This document shows positions 3,257-56,780 of a stretch of DNA of 64,000 nucleotides, in pieces (position 1 is the first letter of the stretch; each line of letters starts with the position of its first letter). The notes below the pieces were generated by a model that was not told the DNA's origin, did not search any database, and worked only from the letters and a program-made list of their open reading frames with translations. This stretch comes from Botryllus schlosseri (Eukaryota): assembly GCA_051294905.1 (NCBI GenBank), contig CM119371.1:35032001-35096000 (forward strand), in the 5' to 3' direction. Both the position numbers and the translations under genes were made by a program.

Positions 3257-3257
3257 A

Positions 3258-4649
3258 AATTGGGGTGCAAACAGGAGATCTCTCCTCCGCCTATACAGGT
3301 CAGTTATACGATCCATCGTAGATTATGGGATGCCAGCGTATTTTTTTGCCCCTAAGTGCCACATCAACAAAATCGAAGTCGTCCAGAACCAGGCTTTACG
3401 TCTCTGCTGCGGCGCCATGCGCAGTACACCTATTTGCGTACTTGAGGCCTCTTGTAATGAGTTTCCTCTCCATTTGAGGCATAAGTATCTTTGTAGCGTA
3501 TACCGTTGTCATCTTCTTAGACATCCACCCGGATCCCACCCGACGTTAGGACTATTAGAGGATTCATGGGAAGAAATATACAGTCTCACTAAGCCGAATT
3601 TCGTCACGTTCAATATAGTTTCCAAGTCGCCAATCTTGGCGGAATTCAGTGTTCGCCAGCGCTATCCTACTTTTCGAGAGCCGTGGTCGGTTAGCCCACT
3701 AAACGTCCACACGCAACTGTGTGGCGTGATATCCAGACTGGATACCCCACATAAAGTAAATTCTATCTTCAAAGACTTTCTGTTCGAAGTCTGTGACCAA
3801 TATATTGAAGTATACACAGACGGCTCAAAAACGTCCACTGCCACTGGTTACGGTGTTTACATACCCCAGAAGCTAATGAAATATTCGCAAACTTGCTCAC
3901 CATTGAAGTCGGTAATTACTGTTGAATTGGATGCGATCATGTATGCACTTTCATGGATAATAGAGAACGGCTTGAGCACAGACAAATTCGTCATACTTAG
4001 TGATTGCCTCAGCGCAATACAGACCATTGGCGAGCCGCTAGACATGCCTAGTCATATCCTTAATGCAATGTATCCTTATCTTGAACAGATCAAACGGGCA
4101 GGCATCGACGTAGCCATCAGCTGGATACCCAGTCACAGCGGCATTCACGGAAATGAAATTGCGGATGAATTAGCGCGGACAGCAGCCTCTCAACCTCCAC
4201 CTCTTTGGTCACCAACGATTCAGTTTTCAGATGCGAAAAGCGCGATTCGGAAGTCCATCCGATCGCGATGGGACACGGAATACAGAAACAATGAAAAAGG
4301 ATGTCACTATCGAGTTTTTCAAACTTCCATATTCGACCGAATATCGTCAGATGGAATATCGCGCCGGCATGAGAATATTTTGTTTCGCCTTCGTTCCGGT
4401 CATTGCCGGCTGAATGTGCATCTGTTTAAAATTGGGTGTATTGACTCTCCTTTATGTGATTTCTGTTTCGTACCAGACACCGTCGAACATTTTCTTTTGT
4501 CATGTTGTAAATACGCTCACCATAGACGCACGGTAAAACACTATTGTGAGGGACTACATCTTGCGTTCAGTACTTATAACCTTTTAGTTAACCCGCTACT
4601 TTTTACGGCTGTCATCGAATTTGTGGATTCTTGTAACATATTGCTATGA
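3258..4649 (+). pseudogene. 3' part of LINE ORF2 (RT thumb region, RNase H, C-terminal CCHC finger), 5'-truncated
   Basis: The frame is open from the junction (NWGANRRSLLRLYRSVIRSIVDYG precedes the Met at 3330, so that Met is internal). RNase H motifs: YTDGSK, ELDAI, ILSDC, WIPSHSGIHGNEIADELAR. C-terminal RLRSGH...CDFC...DTVEHFLLSC. The endonuclease and RT catalytic core are absent. Confidence 0.92.
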
Positions 4650-4712
4650 TTTTCTCAACCTTTTCATTTGTATTTGTCCTGAATTGACTATTCTTTACGA
4701 TTAACCTTGCAC

Positions 4713-4748
4713 GTGGTGCACCAGACCTTTATCGGTGATATGCGCCAC
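4713..4748 (+). other. Predicted 3' UTR stem-loop of the LINE
   Basis: GTGGTGCA (4713-4720) pairs with TGCGCCAC (4741-4748) with one G:U pair, and there is an inner ACC/GGT stem. It ends 19 nt before the tail. Confidence 0.65.
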
Positions 4749-4767
4749 TTCCATTTTTTACCATCTA

Positions 4768-4785
4768 TAATAATAATAATAATAA
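4768..4785 (+). repeat. (TAA)6 3' tail of the LINE
   Basis: TAATAATAATAATAATAA directly before, and overlapping by one base, the right TSD. Confidence 0.95.
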
Positions 4786-4797: not shown

Positions 4798-7700
4798 TTC
4801 TCTGAAAAGTAGAGATGAAATTCGACTCAAACTAGACGGTAGAATTGGCTAAAACTAGGTTCGATTATGCTTTGGGACAAGACCCGACTCCTGTACGTGG
4901 TTAAAAGTGGAGCACTTGTATATAATAGAAATATCGGAGTCTTTAATCCGAGAGCTATACGTGTAATTTTGCGAAAGACGTTGGCCAGGTGATGATACTC
5001 GCGCAATTTCTCTGAAAAGTAGAGATGAAATTCGACTCGAACTAGACGGTAGAATTGGCTAAAACTCGGTTCGATTATGCTCTGGGACAAGCCTCGACTC
5101 CTGTACGTGGTTAAAAGTGGAGCACTTGTCTATAATAGAAATATCGGCGTCTTTAATCCGAGAGCTATACGTGTAATTTTGCGAAAGACGTTGGCCAGGT
5201 GATGATACTCGCGCTATTTCTCTGAAAAGTAGCGATGAAATTCGACTCGAACTAGACGGTAGAATTGGCTAAAACTCGGTTCGATTATGCTTTGGGACAA
5301 GCCTCGACTCCTGCACGTGGTTAAAAGTGGAGCACTTGTCAATAATAGAAATATCGGCGTCTTTAATCCGAGAGCTATACGTGTAACTTTGCGAAAGACG
5401 TTGGCAAGGTGATGATACTCGCGCAATTTCTCTGAAAAGTAGAGATGAAAATCGACTCGAACTAGACGGTAGAATTGGCTAAACTCGGTTCGGTTATGCT
5501 TTGGGACAAGCCTCGACTCCTGAACGTGGTTAAAAGTGGAGCACTTGTCTATGATAGAAATATCGGCGTCTTTAATCCGAGAGCTATACGTGTAACTTTG
5601 CGAAAGACGTTGGCCAGGTGATGATAATCGCGCAATTTCTCTGAAAAATAGAGATGAAATTCGACTCGAACTAGACGGTAGAATTGGCTAAAACTCGGTT
5701 CGATTATGCTTTGGGACAAGCCTCGACTCCGTCACGTGGTTAAAAGTGGAGCACTTGTCAATAATAAAAATATCGGTGTCTTTAATCCGAGAGCTATACG
5801 TGTAATTTTGCGAAAGACGTTGGCCAGGTGATGATACTCGCGCAATTTCTCTGAAAAGTAGAGATGAAATTCGACTCGAACTGGACGGTAGAATTGGCTA
5901 AAACTAGGTTCGAGTATGCTTTGGGACAAGACTCGACTCCTGTACGTGGTTAAAAGTGGAGCACTTGTCTATAATTGAAATATCGGCGTCTTTAATCCGA
6001 GAGCTATACGTGTAATTTTGCGAAAGGCGTTGGTCAGGTGATGATACTCGCGCAATTTCTCTGAAAAGTAGAGATGAAATTCGACTCGAACTAGACGGTA
6101 GAATTGGCTAAAACTAGGTTCGATTATGCTTTGGGACAAGACTCGACTCCTGTACGTGGATAAAAGTGGAGCACTTGTATATAATAGAAATATCGGCGTC
6201 TTTAATCGGAGAGCTATACGTGTAATTTTGCGAAAGACGTTGGCCAGGTGATGATACTCGCGCTATTTCTCTGAAAAGTAGAGATGGAATTCGACTAGAA
6301 CTAGACGGTAGAATTGGCTAAAACTCGGTTCGATTATGCTTTGGGACAAGCCTCGACTCCTGTACGTGGTTAAAAGTGGAGCACTTGTCTATAATAGAAA
6401 TATCGGCGTCTTTAATCCGAGAGCTATACGTGTAATTTTGCGGAAGACGTTGGCCAGGTGATGATACTCGCGCTATTTCTCTGAAAAGTAGAGATGGAAT
6501 TCGACTAGAACTAGACGGTAGAATTGGCTAAAACTAGGTTCGATTATGCTTTGGGACAAGCCTCGACTCCTGAACGTGGTTAAAAGTGGAGCACTTGTCT
6601 ATGATAGAAATATCGGCGTCTTTAATCCGAGAGCTATACGTGTAACTTTGCGAAAGACGTTGGCCAGGTGATGATACTCGCGCAATTTCTATGAAAAGTA
6701 GAGATGAAATTCGACTCGAACTAGACGTTAGAATTGGCTAAAACTCGGTTCGGTTATGCTTTGGGACAAGCCTCGACTCCTGAACGTGGTTAAAAGTGGA
6801 GCACTTGTATATAATAGAAATATCGGCGTCTTTAATCCGAGAGCTATACGTGTAACTTTGCGAAAGACGTTGGCCAGGTGATGATACTCGCGCAATTTCT
6901 CTGAAAAGTAGAGATGAAAATCGACTCGAACTAGACGGTAGAATTGGCTAAACTCGGTTCGGTTATGCTTTGGGACAAGCCTCGACTCCTGAACGTGGTT
7001 AAAAGTGGAGCACTTGTCTATGATAGAAATATCGGCGTCTTTAATCCGAGAGCTATACGTGTAACTTTGCGAAAGACGTTGGCCAGGTGATGATAATCGC
7101 GCAATTTCTCTGAAAAATAGAGATGAAATTCGACTCGAACTAGACGGTAGAATTGGCTAAAACTCGGTTCGATTATGCTTTGGGACAAGCCTCGACTCCT
7201 GAACATGGTTAAAAGTGGAGCACTTGTCTATGATAGAAATATCGGCGTCTTTAATCCGAGAGCTATACGTGTAATTTTGCGAAAGACGTTGGTCAGGTGA
7301 TGATACTCGCGCAATTTCTCTGAAAAGTAGAGATGAAATTCGACTCGAACTAGACGGTAGAATTTGCTAAAACTAGGTTCGATTATGCTTTGGGACAAGA
7401 CTCGACTCCTGTACGTGTTTAAAAGTAGAGCACTTGTATATAATAGAAATATCGGCGTCTTTAATCCGAGAGCTACACGTGTAATTTTGCGAAAGACGTT
7501 GGCCAGGTGATGATACTCGCGCAATTTCTCTGAAAAGTAGAGATGAAATTCGACTCGAACTAGACGGTAGAATTGGCTAAAACTCGGTTCGATTATGCTC
7601 TGGGACAAGCCTCGACTCCTGTACGTGGTTAAAAGTGGAGCACTTGTCTATGATAGAAATATCGGCGTCTTTAATCCGAGAGCTATACGTGTAACTTTGC

Positions 7701-52624: not shown

Positions 52625-52629
52625 ACGTG
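52625..52629 (+). repeat. LTR element TSD, left copy (ACGTG)
   Basis: Repeated at 56776-56780. Removing the element and one copy restores the satellite sequence CTATACGTGTAACTTTGCG. Confidence 0.95.
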
Positions 52630-52832
52630 TGTGGTGATCCGCAATTAGGCAATAATTACTTTTCTCTGATTAGTTACGTTGTACAGTACAGTGTCGCCTT
52701 ATCGTTACCGTGTCATTCTATTCTCTTCTGTTCTGCTGTCAGTTGTGTTCTATGTTGCTTAAAGCCACATTGGTTACCTTTGCTTTAATAAAGCTTCAGT
52801 TAGTCATTCAATGCAATAGTCAGTTTACGACA
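52630..52832 (+). repeat. 5' LTR (203 bp)
   Basis: TGTGGTGATCC...TTTACGACA. Identical by eye to 56573-56775. Confidence 0.97.
52739..52744 (+). promoter_or_regulatory. Candidate initiator (Inr) and transcription start in the 5' LTR
   Basis: TCAGTT matches the TCAKTY Inr consensus and lies upstream of the LTR AATAAA. Other matches exist (52713, 52796, 52820), so the start site is tentative. Confidence 0.45.
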
Positions 52833-52833
52833 A

Positions 52834-52849
52834 TTTAAGCAACATAGAA
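52834..52849 (+). other. Primer-binding-site position, complementary to the element's own LTR (putative self-priming PBS)
   Basis: TTTAAGCAACATAGAA, 1 nt after the LTR's terminal CA, is the exact reverse complement of TTCTATGTTGCTTAAA at 52748-52763. It does not begin with TGG as a canonical tRNA PBS does. Confidence 0.8.
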
Positions 52850-52851
52850 TT

Positions 52852-55800
52852 ATGGCAGAAAGGATTCTGAAACCAGACAAGCTCGATATCAGTCCGGACT
52901 CCGTCTCTGCTGAAAAACAGTACAAGCATTGGAAGAAGACCTTCGATAATTTTCTTTCATCATTTGATCAAGATACACAGATTGACAAGCTGAAGATCTT
53001 AACGAATTTCGTGTCGTCGTCTGTCTATTCCTATTTTGAAGAAAGTTCGACTTACGATACCGCAATAGAACTTCTCGACAAAATTTATATCAAGCAAAAG
53101 AACGAAATCTTCGTCCGCCACATGCTAGTAACCCGTATTCAGAAGCCCGAAGAGACGATCGAGGAATTTTCCCGCGCCTTGGCAGATCTAGCGAAAGATT
53201 GCACATTCAAGACTCTCTCGGCGGAAGATCATCGCAAGGAGTCCATCCGCGACGCTTTCGTTACTGGTCTCCGATCAAACGTTATCAGACAGAGATTATT
53301 AGAAAGTGACGGGGCTGTAACCCTCGAAATGGCGATCTCAAAAGCCCGCTCATTAGAATTCGCCCAGCGAAGCTCTAGTATCTATTGCAGCACTCCATGT
53401 TCATCTGTCGGCGTCGAACCGCTGGAAAAATCTTTGAATCCTGAAGTCGAACTATCATCCGCAGAAACTCACAGTCGACTCAACGCAATGAGCAAAACAA
53501 TCAAACCTAATCGGAAGTGCTTTTTTTGCGGTCAGTCATTCCACTCCCGATATAAATGTCCAGCGAAACGGAGCGAGTGTGGCTATTGTGGAGCCCTAGG
53601 TCATTATGAGGTGGTTTGCATGAGAAAGGCCACCGACAACAGGAGAACAGTAACTGCAATGATCTCATACTTCAGCGCCATCGGAGTACCCAAATGTCTC
53701 ATAAAAGCAAGAATCGTGGTTAAGATCGGCTGCCACATAACATTTGCTTTAATCGACTCCGGTTCCGCGGAAAGCTTCATAAGCACTGCATACGCCAACG
53801 AAATTGACCTGAAATCAACTCCGTACTCCTCTACGGTTACATTTGCTTCCAAATCCCATTCCCGCAAGATTGAAGAACTCTACAGACCAGACATTCTTGT
53901 AAACGAAACGAAATATACGGAATTCCCTCTTAAAGGAATGGAAGATTTGTGCGCTGATGTGGTGCTTGGTCTCGATTTCATGAACTTGCATAAACGAGTC
54001 ATTTTCAATATGGACGGAGATAGAGATACCTTGGAACTCCCTCGAGATCAGAAGTACAGTGTATGCGGAGTTGCTCAAGCGTGTGTCGAAGCACCGCAAA
54101 TTTTCAAGTTTATGACACCGAATTGTAAACCGATTGCCACTAAATCCAGAAGATACAGCGAAGCCGATCTACATTTCATTAAAGCGGAAGTTGCGAAACT
54201 CGAGAAGGAAGGAATCATCGAGCCGTCCTCATCGCCTTGGCGAGCACAGGTTCTTGTTGTAAATGACGGTCGACACAAGAAGCGCATGGTCATCGACTTC
54301 TCTCAGACGGTCAACAGGTACACCTTACTAGACGCCTATCCTTTACCAAGGATCGATGACCAAGTCAACAACATCGCCCGTTTCAAAGTTTTCAGTACGT
54401 TAGATCTGAAGTCCGCGTATTATCAAGTGGCTCTATCACCTGATGATCGTCCGTATACGGCATTCGAAGCCGCTGGAAATCTTTACCAATACCGTCGATT
54501 GCCATTTGGAGTCACCAACGGAGTTTCGGCATTCCAAAGAATAATAGACAACGTCATAAAAGACAACAAGCTCACTGGCACCTTCGCTTATCTGGATAAT
54601 ATTACTGTTTGCGGTATGGATAAGGACGACCACGATCGGAATCTCGACGCGTTTCTCAATGCTGCTCAGCGATTCAGCCTCACTTTCAATCATTCGAAGT
54701 CGATCATCCGTTCTACGGAAATAGACTTGCTCGGTTATCGCGTGTCGCATGGCGTGATCAAACCGGACCCAGAAAGACTAAAGCCGTTAATCGATTTATT
54801 GCCGCCACGCAACAACCCAGAACTAAAACGAGTGTGTGGCATGTTTGCCTACTATGCCAAATGGTTGCCCAACTTTTCCGACAAAATCCGTCCTTTGTAT
54901 TCAGTCGAAAAATTTCCGCTTTCCGAAAATGCATCTATCGCATTTAACGATTTAAAACGCGAGTTAGTTGACGCGTCTCTTGGTAGGATCGACGAGACAA
55001 GTCCGTTCACAATAGAGTGTGATGCTTCTAATGCAGCCATTGCAGCTATCCTTAGTCAAAACGGTCGACCGGTCGCGTTCATGTCAAAAGCACTATCGCC
55101 AAGTGAAATACGCTACTCCTCTGTTGAGAAAGAAGCGTCCTCAATTATCGCGGCAGTTCGTAAATGGGCTCATTTTTTACATGGCAGACATTTCACTCTT
55201 GTTACTGACCAGAGATCTGTCGCGTTTATGTTTGACGGCAAATCTAAAGGTAAAATCAAAAATACCAAAATCCAACTGTGGCGTGTCGAACTTGGTCAAT
55301 TTTCGTATGATATCGTACACAAACCGGGGGCACTGAATGTTGCGGCTGATATGTTTTCGCGGACCACATCTTCGTATTGCGCATCGATCTCACCCTGTGA
55401 GTTGGGTTCTAATCTAAATCGCATACACGACACTCTGGGTCATCCAGGAGTCACAAGGCTGCATCATTTCGTTCGTTCGAAAAATCTCTCGTTCTCCCTA
55501 AATGACGTCCGTGAGACCTGCGCTCGTTGCCGCATTTGTGCTCAAATCAAACCAAATTTTTACAAATGCAATCCGCAAGTGCTTGTGAAAGCAACGAAAC
55601 CTTGGGAAAGAATCAACGTAGACTTCAAAGGGCCTTTGAAATCTAACAAATCCCCTTTCATGTTCGTTGTCATAGACGAATATAGTCGTTTTCCGTTCGC
55701 CTTTCCATGTCGCAACACTTCCGCGCTAACCGTCGTTTCGTGTTTGTCGACACTATTCGCTGTTTTTGGACTTCCGGGATACGTTCACAGTGACCGAGGC

Positions 55801-56172
55801 ACCGCTTTCGTGTCCAAGGAAGTCAAGGATTATTTACATTCTCGCGGGGTTGCAACTAGCTTCACTACTCCTTACCACCCAACAGGAAATTCGCAGTGCG
55901 AACGCCTTAATCAAACATTATGGCGAACCATCAAACTTATTTTGAAATCAACCGGGGTCTCAGAATCATGTTGGGCTGACGCCCTTCCTCATGCGCTACA
56001 TTCAGTTCGATCGCTACTTTGCACGTCAACTAATTCAACACCGCATGACCGATTTTTTTCCTTTCCAAGAAAAAGTATGGTGGGGAATAGCGTGCCATCC
56101 TGGCTATTGACACCGGGGCCAGTTTTCTTACGCAAATTCGTCAGAAACAAGGGCGACGAACTATGTTCTTAG
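52852..56172 (+). CDS. Gag-Pol polyprotein (gag with two CCHC knuckles, aspartic protease, RT, RNase H, integrase), ending at a probable premature TAG
   Basis: 1106-aa ORF. Two CX2CX4HX4C knuckles (53518-53619). Protease LIDSGS. RT motifs SPW, LDLKSAYYQV, LPFG, YLDN. RNase H motifs CDAS, EKE, TDQ, ADMFSR. Integrase HDTLGH...CRIC, VDFKGP, HSDRG, GNSQCER. Confidence 0.95.
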   Translation: MAERILKPDKLDISPDSVSAEKQYKHWKKTFDNFLSSFDQDTQIDKLKILTNFVSSSVYSYFEESSTYDTAIELLDKIYIKQKNEIFVRHMLVTRIQKPEETIEEFSRALADLAKDCTFKTLSAEDHRKESIRDAFVTGLRSNVIRQRLLESDGAVTLEMAISKARSLEFAQRSSSIYCSTPCSSVGVEPLEKSLNPEVELSSAETHSRLNAMSKTIKPNRKCFFCGQSFHSRYKCPAKRSECGYCGALGHYEVVCMRKATDNRRTVTAMISYFSAIGVPKCLIKARIVVKIGCHITFALIDSGSAESFISTAYANEIDLKSTPYSSTVTFASKSHSRKIEELYRPDILVNETKYTEFPLKGMEDLCADVVLGLDFMNLHKRVIFNMDGDRDTLELPRDQKYSVCGVAQACVEAPQIFKFMTPNCKPIATKSRRYSEADLHFIKAEVAKLEKEGIIEPSSSPWRAQVLVVNDGRHKKRMVIDFSQTVNRYTLLDAYPLPRIDDQVNNIARFKVFSTLDLKSAYYQVALSPDDRPYTAFEAAGNLYQYRRLPFGVTNGVSAFQRIIDNVIKDNKLTGTFAYLDNITVCGMDKDDHDRNLDAFLNAAQRFSLTFNHSKSIIRSTEIDLLGYRVSHGVIKPDPERLKPLIDLLPPRNNPELKRVCGMFAYYAKWLPNFSDKIRPLYSVEKFPLSENASIAFNDLKRELVDASLGRIDETSPFTIECDASNAAIAAILSQNGRPVAFMSKALSPSEIRYSSVEKEASSIIAAVRKWAHFLHGRHFTLVTDQRSVAFMFDGKSKGKIKNTKIQLWRVELGQFSYDIVHKPGALNVAADMFSRTTSSYCASISPCELGSNLNRIHDTLGHPGVTRLHHFVRSKNLSFSLNDVRETCARCRICAQIKPNFYKCNPQVLVKATKPWERINVDFKGPLKSNKSPFMFVVIDEYSRFPFAFPCRNTSALTVVSCLSTLFAVFGLPGYVHSDRGTAFVSKEVKDYLHSRGVATSFTTPYHPTGNSQCERLNQTLWRTIKLILKSTGVSESCWADALPHALHSVRSLLCTSTNSTPHDRFFSFPRKSMVGNSVPSWLLTPGPVFLRKFVRNKGDELCS

Positions 56173-56520
56173 GTCGAACTTCTTGAAGCCAACCCGACTT
56201 ACGCACGTGTTCGTTTTCCTAACGGCCGCGAGTCCAACGTCTCACTCAACGATTTGGCCCGTTTTCCTACTGGAGAAGAAACACCGTCGACTAATCCTGA
56301 AACGAAACAAGCTGAACCTTGTTCTGTTGATGTCGATGGCCACGAGCCAATTCGCGAAGTTTCTAACGTTGAGTTGAAGTCATCTGATGAAGAGCCTCAA
56401 GAATCTAACCATTCAGAGGATGTACCAGATGATTCGAGTAGAAATCTAGACGTCGAGCTTCGGCGTTCAACTAGAGTTAGGCGCCAGCCGGAACGGTATG
56501 GTAATTTTGTTAGTCATTGA
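56173..56520 (+). pseudogene. In-frame continuation of the integrase C-terminus beyond the TAG (115 codons)
   Basis: Same frame as gag-pol: VELLEANPTYARVRFPNGRESNVSLNDLARFP, then an acidic linker, then LRRSTRVRRQPERYGNFVSH*. The basic RRSxR..P tail is typical of Gypsy integrase ends. Confidence 0.85.
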
Positions 56521-56559
56521 TATTTTTGTGTCATTTTTATATGTGAATTTACAAAATGC

Positions 56560-56572
56560 AAGGGGGGTAGAA
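56560..56572 (+). other. Polypurine tract (plus-strand primer)
   Basis: AAGGGGGGTAGAA abuts the TG of the 3' LTR. Confidence 0.9.
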
Positions 56573-56775
56573 TGTGGTGATCCGCAATTAGGCAATAATT
56601 ACTTTTCTCTGATTAGTTACGTTGTACAGTACAGTGTCGCCTTATCGTTACCGTGTCATTCTATTCTCTTCTGTTCTGCTGTCAGTTGTGTTCTATGTTG
56701 CTTAAAGCCACATTGGTTACCTTTGCTTTAATAAAGCTTCAGTTAGTCATTCAATGCAATAGTCAGTTTACGACA
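56573..56775 (+). repeat. 3' LTR (203 bp)
   Basis: Direct repeat of 52630-52832, preceded by the polypurine tract and followed by the TSD. Confidence 0.97.
56730..56735 (+). terminator. Polyadenylation signal AATAAA in the 3' LTR (5' LTR copy at 52787-52792)
   Basis: AATAAA 40 nt before the LTR end, within the small dyad GCTTT-AAT-AAAGC. Confidence 0.65.
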
Positions 56776-56780
56776 ACGTG
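56776..56780 (+). repeat. LTR element TSD, right copy (ACGTG)
   Basis: Matches 52625-52629. Confidence 0.95.

Follow-up and report, generated by a model that had tools for sequence, protein, structure and literature searches.

Which RNA primes minus-strand DNA synthesis in an LTR retrotransposon whose 5' LTR is followed by no TGG-type tRNA site? This question is raised by an element lying at positions 52630-56775 of a 64,000-nt stretch of the Botryllus schlosseri genome (hereafter the window, to which all coordinates refer). It is a 4.1-kb single-ORF Ty3/gypsy LTR retrotransposon inserted into satellite DNA. A first-pass annotation of the window had proposed that this element dispenses with tRNA and primes from its own RNA. 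The results presented here lead us to consider it probable that the element's own RNA primes minus-strand DNA in the manner of Tf1.

Anatomy of the element and of its primer-binding site

The features on which the argument relies are the following.

52625..52629, + strand: left target-site duplication ACGTG; repeated immediately behind the 3' LTR, and present once in an uninterrupted satellite unit
52630..52832, + strand: 5' LTR, 203 nt, TG...CA, 100% identical to the 3' LTR
52748..52763, + strand: LTR arm of 16 nt with an AAA end, the proposed self-primer
52764..52774, + strand: short hairpin (GCCA/TGGT) starting with GCC, immediately 3' of the arm; recurrent, statistically weak
52787..52792, + strand: AATAAA poly(A) signal
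52833, + strand: spacer A, 1 nt, between the CA end of the LTR and the primer-binding site
52834..52849, + strand: putative primer-binding site (PBS), reverse complement of the LTR arm
52852..56172, + strand: gag-pol ORF, 1106 aa, ending early at an in-frame TAG (56170-56172)
53518..53559 and 53578..53619, + strand: two CCHC zinc knuckles of Gag
53722..53985, + strand: aspartic protease (PF13975, residues 291-378)
54274..54744, + strand: reverse transcriptase (PF00078), catalytic box YLDN at 54589-54600
54925..55302, + strand: RNase H (PF17919/PF17917)
55414..55881, + strand: integrase zinc-binding and catalytic core domains (PF17921, PF00665)
56173..56520, + strand: continuation of the pol frame past the TAG, 115 codons and a stop, integrase C-terminal tail (read through with X to 56517)
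56560..56572, + strand: polypurine tract AAGGGGGGTAGAA, adjoining the 3' LTR
56573..56775, + strand: 3' LTR, with the second arm copy at 56691-56706
56776..56780, + strand: right target-site duplication ACGTG

The domain order, Gag and then PR-RT-RNase H-IN within one element, is that of Ty3/gypsy elements (Metaviridae), as are the TG..CA direct LTRs, the target-site duplication and the polypurine tract, a purine-rich tract being found at the equivalent place in all other families. The limits of the LTR are given by 16 other copies, whose flanks diverge exactly at its boundary. Identity between the direct repeats extends over 204 nt, and we assign A52833 to a 1-nt spacer because the LTRs end in TG..CA and are flanked by the 5-bp duplication. 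With its identical LTRs and with perfect arm:PBS pairing in 14 of 17 copies, the window copy is young and its family has been recently active. The premature TAG that interrupts the pol frame had been overlooked in the earlier annotation.

Several claims of that annotation concern the leader and can be read directly from the letters, which bear them out. The end of the 5' LTR is separated from the gag ATG at 52852 by 19 nt, the Inr-like TCAGTT lies at 52739-52744, the AATAAA and the two knuckles of Gag are in place, and the 16 nt of the putative PBS are the exact reverse complement of the arm. A G:U pair between 52747 and 52850 could lengthen the helix further. The complement lies at the one position that a minus-strand primer has to occupy. 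When the 24 nt 3' of the LTR were shuffled (test run on the same-family copies L034, L036, L039 and L052), none of 200 shuffles reached 16 nt, the shuffled mean being about 6. For the leader (52741-52860), folding gives -30.4 kcal/mol (z = -3.1), and the minimum-energy structure contains the arm:PBS helix.

Conservation of the pairing among relatives

If the complementarity serves in priming, it should be found again in homologues with compensatory changes, a check that the first-pass annotation had itself put forward. In the same genome, 22 of 25 analysable elements, belonging to eight families with 45-54% protein identity to our query (P0037), carry a perfect complement of 12-16 nt that begins at the second base after the LTR; for 23 of the 25, none of 200 shuffles equals the observed complement length. 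Among metagenome relatives, 16 of 24 assessable loci have a perfect match of at least 12 nt in the equivalent position; at 6 further loci the complement is interrupted by point mismatches. The sequences of arm and PBS differ between families while their position stays the same.

We aligned the arms and sites of 23 representatives, among which are the close relatives L066/L069, L075/L071 and L064/L061. Paired cells amount to 94.6%, against 69.9% after shuffling, a percentage that is partly high by construction because the rows were picked by a complementarity search. Of the 16 pairs, 14 are altered on both sides in one representative or another, with 80 double-changed cells against 20 in shuffles (0/500 shuffles match), and one-sided changes are limited to 4/368 cells. 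Sliding the partners by 1-3 columns leaves only 30-49% of cells paired, and pairing drops to random at positions 17-18. The sisters L075 and L071 are one compensatory pair apart. The helix appears in 23/23 unconstrained folds. A chance origin of the complementarity was considered and rejected, given the outcome of the shuffles of the leader (0/200) and of the covariation (0/500).

The complementarity is kept at a fixed position with compensatory changes throughout the clade, and this covariation supports the earlier idea of a self-complementary, tRNA-independent primer site. Judged from these sequences, the complementarity characterises the clade as a whole. By the hosts in which relatives were found (nematode, shrimp, copepod, tunicate, molluscs and sea anemone), this clade is spread across animal phyla.

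Other features accompany the pairing. The arm always ends with AAA, a nearly invariant RCC follows it directly in the different families, and the LTR end and spacer read CAA in 23/23 representatives. AATAAA or ATTAAA lies inside the arm in 14/23 of them; the hexamer is outside the arm in the window family and inside it in most other families. The hairpin starting at the RCC is present in about 19/23 folds, with stems of at least 4 bp in 17/23, mostly not above shuffles. A recognition rule for the clade can be drawn from these regularities, LTR ...WAAA|RCC ... CA-A-complement, by which the start and cleavage sites are predicted to the nucleotide. A scan of the families for promoter motifs 5' of the arm found none with a constant spacing, and the TCAGTT situated 7 nt upstream of the arm in the window element is not conserved in the other families.

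Probable priming by the element's own RNA and alternative readings

Experimental precedent for self-priming comes from Tf1 and Tf2, according to the available text of the reports (PMC5341516, PMC10085805). Transposed to the window element, it suggests the following path. Transcription would start within the LTR, either at 52747/52748 or a little before it, and the first 13-16 nt of the RNA, that is the arm with its AAA end, would fold back onto the site one base past the LTR. The RT/RNase H of the element, whose RNase H domain is consistent with such a step, would cut the arm from the conserved RCC at 52763|52764. The 3'-OH of the arm would then be extended through the spacer and U5 up to the cut, giving a strong-stop DNA of about 70 nt, which would transfer to the 3' R. 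Since plus-strand strong-stop synthesis would copy the attached primer, the site would be rewritten from the arm at each cycle, and this rewriting would explain why arm and site are perfectly complementary with almost no wobble intermediates. As the arm carries the poly(A) hexamer in most families, the pairing could also hide the 5' copy of that signal. We also considered that the arm might pair while belonging to a 3' end with a poly(A) tail, and rejected this, as the spacer and the LTR end mismatch such a tail.

RNA reads from four runs displayed no pile-up of starts or ends, and most of the coverage of the LTR traces back to a copy of it that forms part of another transcript. The bulk RNA run X24 contributed 10 reads, of which 9 overlap the stretch in part only; the Logan contigs of X1 are broken at variant sites and thereby uninformative on starts; none of the sequencing datasets listed for the stretch is recorded as RNA. 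Four reads of one single-cell run carry an apparent template-switch adaptor just before 52790, a faint hint that an RNA begins 3' of the arm, possibly in a different copy.

These reads have to be weighed with the idea of a transcription start beyond the arm, at the RCC or 3' of it. The arm would then belong to U3 and be found only near the RNA 3' end, and the complementarity would reflect a long-range 5'-3' contact aiding strand transfer, or priming, in cis or in trans, by the 3' copy. Besides the reads, the hexamer inside the arm in most families, as in retroviruses that have their signal in U3, and the near invariance of the RCC would suit such an arrangement, which we nevertheless hold to be improbable. 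Under the standard scheme, priming from the 3' U3 would join sense U3 RNA to antisense U5-R DNA and give no normal LTR-LTR product. Moreover, transcription usually starts at a pyrimidine-purine step, and here a G preceded by an A would break this rule. The reads themselves are four, come from one run and may belong to another copy, and the available text on Tf2 describes primer-less transcripts that start downstream and are non-replicative (PMC5341516). It is still less probable, to the point of being hardly credible, that a host tRNA, a tRNA fragment or another small RNA primes and that the match to the LTR is secondary. Half-tRNA priming does exist in Ty1/copia lineages, as the accessible part of one survey reports (PMC6317226), but the site varies at at least 10 positions among families and hosts and always matches its own LTR, and it lacks the TGG of a tRNA site. 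The longest complement to 20 sampled tRNA genes, all of Lys, Ala, Arg or Ser type, is 5-8 nt; an Rfam tRNA search of the genome listed 63 matches, and the restriction to these four isoacceptor types leaves this alternative some room. Nor was a non-LTR source of the 16-mer found among the genomic copies examined: outside its normal LTR/PBS context it occurs 5 times in the 495-Mb genome, one occurrence being the known LTR copy L029, and the copy inspected from each of the two remaining contigs proved to be a diverged LTR; all the 16-mer copies examined are members of this family.

The helix could alternatively be a conserved RNA structure with another job, such as masking the poly(A) signal near the promoter, serving in packaging or dimerisation, or regulating the translation of gag, the primer being something else. 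We regard this as unlikely, if less so than the two preceding proposals. In its favour, the hexamer falls within the arm in the 14 representatives mentioned above, and in many families a few nt at most lie between the end of the helix and the start codon (ATG 0-55 nt behind). Yet the annealing position of a primer is fixed, immediately 3' of the LTR, and in every family the covarying site fills that place; any primer would need the sequence of the arm, which among the examined copies is found only in the LTR/PBS context. The window family and four others retain the helix with the hexamer outside the arm, and the scarcity of wobble intermediates (4 cells in 368) suits copying better than slow compensatory selection. 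Such a job of the helix and self-priming could coexist.

Relation to known elements

To our knowledge, the only demonstrated cases of self-primed reverse transcription are Tf1/Tf2 of fission yeast; elsewhere, in Tf1/sushi chromoviruses and a few plant lineages, it is inferred. To these the present work adds a clade of tiny Gypsy elements, lacking a chromodomain and found in many animal phyla, which is marked by the same architecture with strong covariation. No report of self-priming in animal elements of such kind was found in the literature searched, whose coverage ends short of Levin 1995, Lin & Levin 1998 and SURL 1991. If self-priming is true of this clade, pipelines based on tRNA sites would mis-score its members as having no primer site, and their mobility would be free of tRNA and out of reach of tRNA fragments that silence elements through their primer sites, a mechanism reported for mammalian elements (PMC7472051, PMC12853362).

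As the first-pass annotation had stated, the element has no chromodomain: PF00385 is missing from the window ORF, from its read-through tail and from six full-length relatives (7 proteins scanned, E <= 0.1), and precomputed domains place it in 0/120 listed relatives. By description, the 203-nt LTRs, the metazoan spread and the Gag with two CCHC knuckles would agree with a placement in the Mag lineage; the cluster names of six relatives gave no information on this. The available parts of the literature present this lineage, especially its C-clade with SURL of sea urchins, as widespread in metazoans, as outnumbering all other Gypsy clades in molluscs and as having LTRs that are very short (mean of 174 nt in a training set) (PMC6238403, PMC8220671, PMC3601003). 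Those parts hold no statement on priming, the original descriptions of SURL, mag and Jule being outside the coverage. Should the assignment be right, few LTR elements of molluscs and annelids would be as common as those described here. A broader proposal, which we put forward tentatively and with rather less than even confidence, is that a pan-metazoan, very abundant non-chromoviral Gypsy clade, probably the Mag C-clade, replicates without host tRNA; that its self-primer of 13-16 nt doubles as poly(A) signal and is rewritten each cycle; that this way of priming arose, or was retained, separately from Tf1/sushi; and that it puts the clade beyond defences directed at tRNA sites, such as 3'-tRNA fragments.

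The closest solved structures are those of Ty3 of Saccharomyces cerevisiae (7q5b, E = 1.2e-61; 4ol8, E = 6.2e-50). Superfamily and domain order are shared with Ty3, and the protein similarity is at superfamily level only. Ty3 primes with tRNA.

The view that self-priming is confined to the Tf1/sushi group is outdated. The accessible text of one survey predicts it, from LTR/PBS complementarity alone, for plant Tcn1 chromoviruses and for the TAR lineage of Ty1/copia (Houba, Osr-1) (PMC6317226). As for the window clade, the trait is predicted here outside the original fungal and vertebrate set, which makes it a scattered one; unlike that clade, these elements belong to another superfamily or clade and live in plant hosts. 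The parts of this literature that were available do not cover animal non-chromoviral Gypsy elements.

The nearest parallel remains that of Tf1 and Tf2, in which the RNase H of the RT cuts off an upstream LTR segment that then primes the minus strand, as described in the text available (PMC5341516, PMC4600332, PMC10085805). In Tf1/Tf2, Tj1 and the Tf1/sushi group, as in the window element, there is no tRNA site and the sequence following the LTR complements an upstream LTR segment; the Tf1/sushi group also shares the single-ORF polyprotein and its domain order. The window element differs from Tf1/sushi by its lack of a chromodomain, by a clade found in animal hosts of many phyla and by a size of only 4.1 kb. 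The self-priming duplex of Tf1 is about 11 nt, and the corresponding duplex of the clade measures 13-16 bp. The Tf1 'pretzel', made of three duplexes, is not evident here, and of the two extra duplexes only the RCC hairpin is a candidate, weakly supported as it is. What distinguishes the window clade from Tf1/sushi is the invariant single-A spacer and the AAA arm end placed before a conserved RCC, usually overlapping the poly(A) hexamer; this overlap of proposed primer and poly(A) signal makes a compact design not described for Tf1.

Satellite setting and anatomy of the element

The whole 64-kb window is filled with a 210-bp satellite array (at least 278 units, about 95% alike), which is broken twice, by a 1.5-kb insertion near 3257-4784 and by the LTR element. 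The insertion is unrelated to the LTR element; given the (TAA)n run at its end and the repeat of satellite bases at its flanks, it looks like a 5'-truncated non-LTR retrotransposon. The direct repeats of the LTR element measure 204 nt with 100% identity. Since ACGTG is present on both flanks of the element and occurs only once in an intact satellite unit, insertion was precise, with a 5-bp target duplication. Its features are as follows (forward strand):

52630-52832, 5' LTR with the usual TG...CA ends
52852-56172, single ORF of 1106 aa: Gag with two CCHC knuckles, protease, reverse transcriptase (RT), RNase H and integrase
56560-56572, polypurine tract adjoining the 3' LTR
56573-56775, 3' LTR with the usual TG...CA ends

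In this young copy, with its identical LTRs, an in-frame TAG at 56170-56172 truncates the ORF in the integrase region. With X in place of the TAG, the frame stays open for another 115 codons, as far as 56517, and this stretch has matches in the C-terminal ends of relatives. Unlike the window copy, several other family copies found in the genome search have no internal stop. The closest solved structures to the protein are those of Ty3. The RT catalytic box (54589-54600) is YLDN rather than YxDD, and the second acidic position is N in nine of 12 aligned clade members and D in three. As the family is clearly recently active, its RT works with one Asp replaced.

Complementarity between the LTR and the primer site

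The first-pass annotation had proposed, from sequence alone, that this element primes without a tRNA, and every sequence statement behind that proposal is correct. The primer-binding site 52834-52849 is a perfect 16-nt reverse complement of LTR bases 52748-52763 (hereafter the arm); A52833 is the sole base between LTR and site, the ATG comes next at 52852, no TGG of a tRNA-type primer site lies behind the 5' LTR, and TCAGTT and AATAAA occupy 52739-52744 and 52787-52792. This complementarity is real and far beyond chance: when the 24 nt behind the LTR were shuffled, 0 of 200 shuffles reached 16 nt (mean about 6), and the leader fold contains the arm:site helix (-30.4 kcal/mol, z = -3.1). Perfect pairing is kept in 14 of the 17 family copies with 5' LTR and leader, the other three being older copies with one-sided point changes.

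Priming by a host molecule was also considered. Complements between 20 sampled tRNA genes, of four types only, and 23 sites reach at most 5-8 nt; a shared host primer is ruled out on logic as well, since the site differs between families in step with the LTR of each. Outside its normal LTR/site context the 16-mer occurs five times in 495 Mb, once in a known LTR copy; one copy retrieved from each of the other two contigs is a diverged LTR. On contig G000:C14 of this genome, LTR copies at 17180715, 17190634 and 17200553 share one point change and lie exactly 9,919 bp apart, which indicates a probable tandemly repeated block holding an LTR of the window family.

Database searches gave 1411 relatives of the polyprotein at a cut-off of E <= 0.001. 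The top 120 share about 50% identity with it, measure about 1200 aa and in many cases lie on ~4-kb contigs; the named hosts among them are a nematode, a shrimp, a copepod, a tunicate, two molluscs and a sea anemone. With one such relative as query, the same genome yielded 30 loci. Five were set aside: L035, the window copy, because the satellite confounds it; L037, in which no pair of LTRs turned up; and L038, L042 and L059, whose LTR pair was wrongly called. The 25 analysable ones form eight families, their LTRs spanning 158-260 nt and the whole elements 4.0-5.1 kb. The longest perfect complement between each LTR and the 24 nt that follow was scored; in 22 of 25 it measures 12-16 nt, starting from the second base past the terminal CA, and in the exceptions (L032, L048, L056) one arm has point changes. 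Scanning metagenomes added 65 loci; 31 of them include the gag start, and 24 of these 31 have at least 120 nt upstream. At the same place, 16 of the 24 have 12-18 perfect nt and six pair with mismatches (L061, L070, L072, L111, L113, L122), while pairing was not found in L089, a rearranged contig, and L107, with only 125 nt upstream. Judged from these sequences, the pairing is a character of an animal-wide clade. The short contig L078 terminates exactly in an arm matching its own site. The ~4-kb metagenome contigs L078, L062, L079 and L089 each hold one element in circularly permuted form with just one LTR; both the LTR repeat and the inverted repeat of arm and site seem to bring assemblers to a halt.

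For covariation, 23 rows were aligned (the window, seven same-genome families and 15 metagenome loci, including three pairs of close relatives), from 18 nt before the arm end to 18 nt into the site. In the 16-bp helix, 94.6% of cells are paired versus 69.9 +/- 1.5% in shuffles, a percentage that is partly by construction because rows were located via a complementarity search; no such reservation attaches to the fixed position, the invariant context or the double changes. Both-sided changes occur in 14 of 16 helix pairs and double-changed cells number 80 versus 20 in shuffles, none of 500 shuffles attaining the observed value on any of the three measures. Of 368 cells, just 4 are changed on one side alone. 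Pairing falls to 30-49% when the partner is shifted by 1-3 columns, and at positions 17-18 it is down to random. The invariant context consists of the AAA at the arm end and of the CA at the LTR end with a single A between it and the site, this CAA being present in all 23 representatives; the RCC behind the arm is nearly invariant. The elements L075 and L071, nearly identical and from one metagenome, differ in the helix (region about 4923-5000 in each) by a single fully compensated pair, G:C versus T:A, apparently capturing arm and site as they change together.

Proposed self-priming and the start of the RNA

Self-priming as in the fission-yeast elements Tf1/Tf2 is the best-supported reading. 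There, the self-primer in R pairs with the site and is cut off by RT, and the resulting cDNA, copied from U5 and R, is transferred to the 3' end (PMC5341516, PMC10085805, PMC4600332). In the window element the cut is predicted at 52763|52764, with a strong-stop DNA of about 70 nt, whose 3' end the conserved RCC would make rich in G+C for strand transfer. Plus-strand strong-stop synthesis would copy the primer, so that the site would be rewritten from the arm in each cycle; such renewal fits both the perfect complementarity and the missing wobble intermediates. If so, the 5' limit of complementarity, 52747/52748, would probably mark the RNA 5' end.

Between the arm and the LTR end lie 21-69 nt. 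AATAAA or ATTAAA lies inside the arm in 14 of 23 representatives, and further downstream in the other families, including the window's. Unconstrained folds form the helix in all 23, usually with a short hairpin starting at RCC; the stems are mostly no better than shuffles, and this predicted hairpin is suggestive only.

LTR read coverage is even in two single-cell RNA runs, X22 and X23. After 52832, 67 reads (51 in X22, 16 in X23) pass from the LTR into a single unrelated sequence, so an expressed host transcript from another place in the genome includes a solo or 3' LTR of the family. Four X22 reads have adaptor-like loose letters, which we take to be the template-switch adaptor, directly before 52790. 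On this thin evidence an RNA would have its 5' end within AATAAA, downstream of the arm, which to that extent counts against the self-priming model. No promoter motif at a fixed distance from the arm was found across families. In Tf2, a downstream start giving RNA unable to self-prime is known (PMC5341516).

Comparison with known groups

The core of the first-pass interpretation, a tRNA-independent, self-complementary primer site, is borne out: the feature covaries across the whole animal-wide clade, which makes the evidence stronger than could be known from one sequence. Its claims on start site and lineage were overstated, as was uniqueness, since there were earlier predictions of self-priming outside Tf1/sushi, for the Tcn1 and Ty1/copia TAR elements of plants (PMC6317226). 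Searches of full-text literature, outside which lie the original SURL, mag and Jule papers, gave no paper in which self-priming is ascribed to animal Gypsy elements outside the chromoviruses, those of Mag type included. The element differs from chromoviruses, hence from Tf1/sushi, by the absence of their defining chromodomain, which was found neither in the ORF and its read-through tail nor in six relatives or the precomputed annotations of the best 120 of 1411 relatives. An independent origin of self-priming, as put forward in the first-pass annotation, would be possible, as would placement in the Mag C-clade (SURL), with whose published descriptions the short LTRs, two-knuckle Gag and metazoan spread agree (PMC3601003, PMC6238403, PMC8220671).
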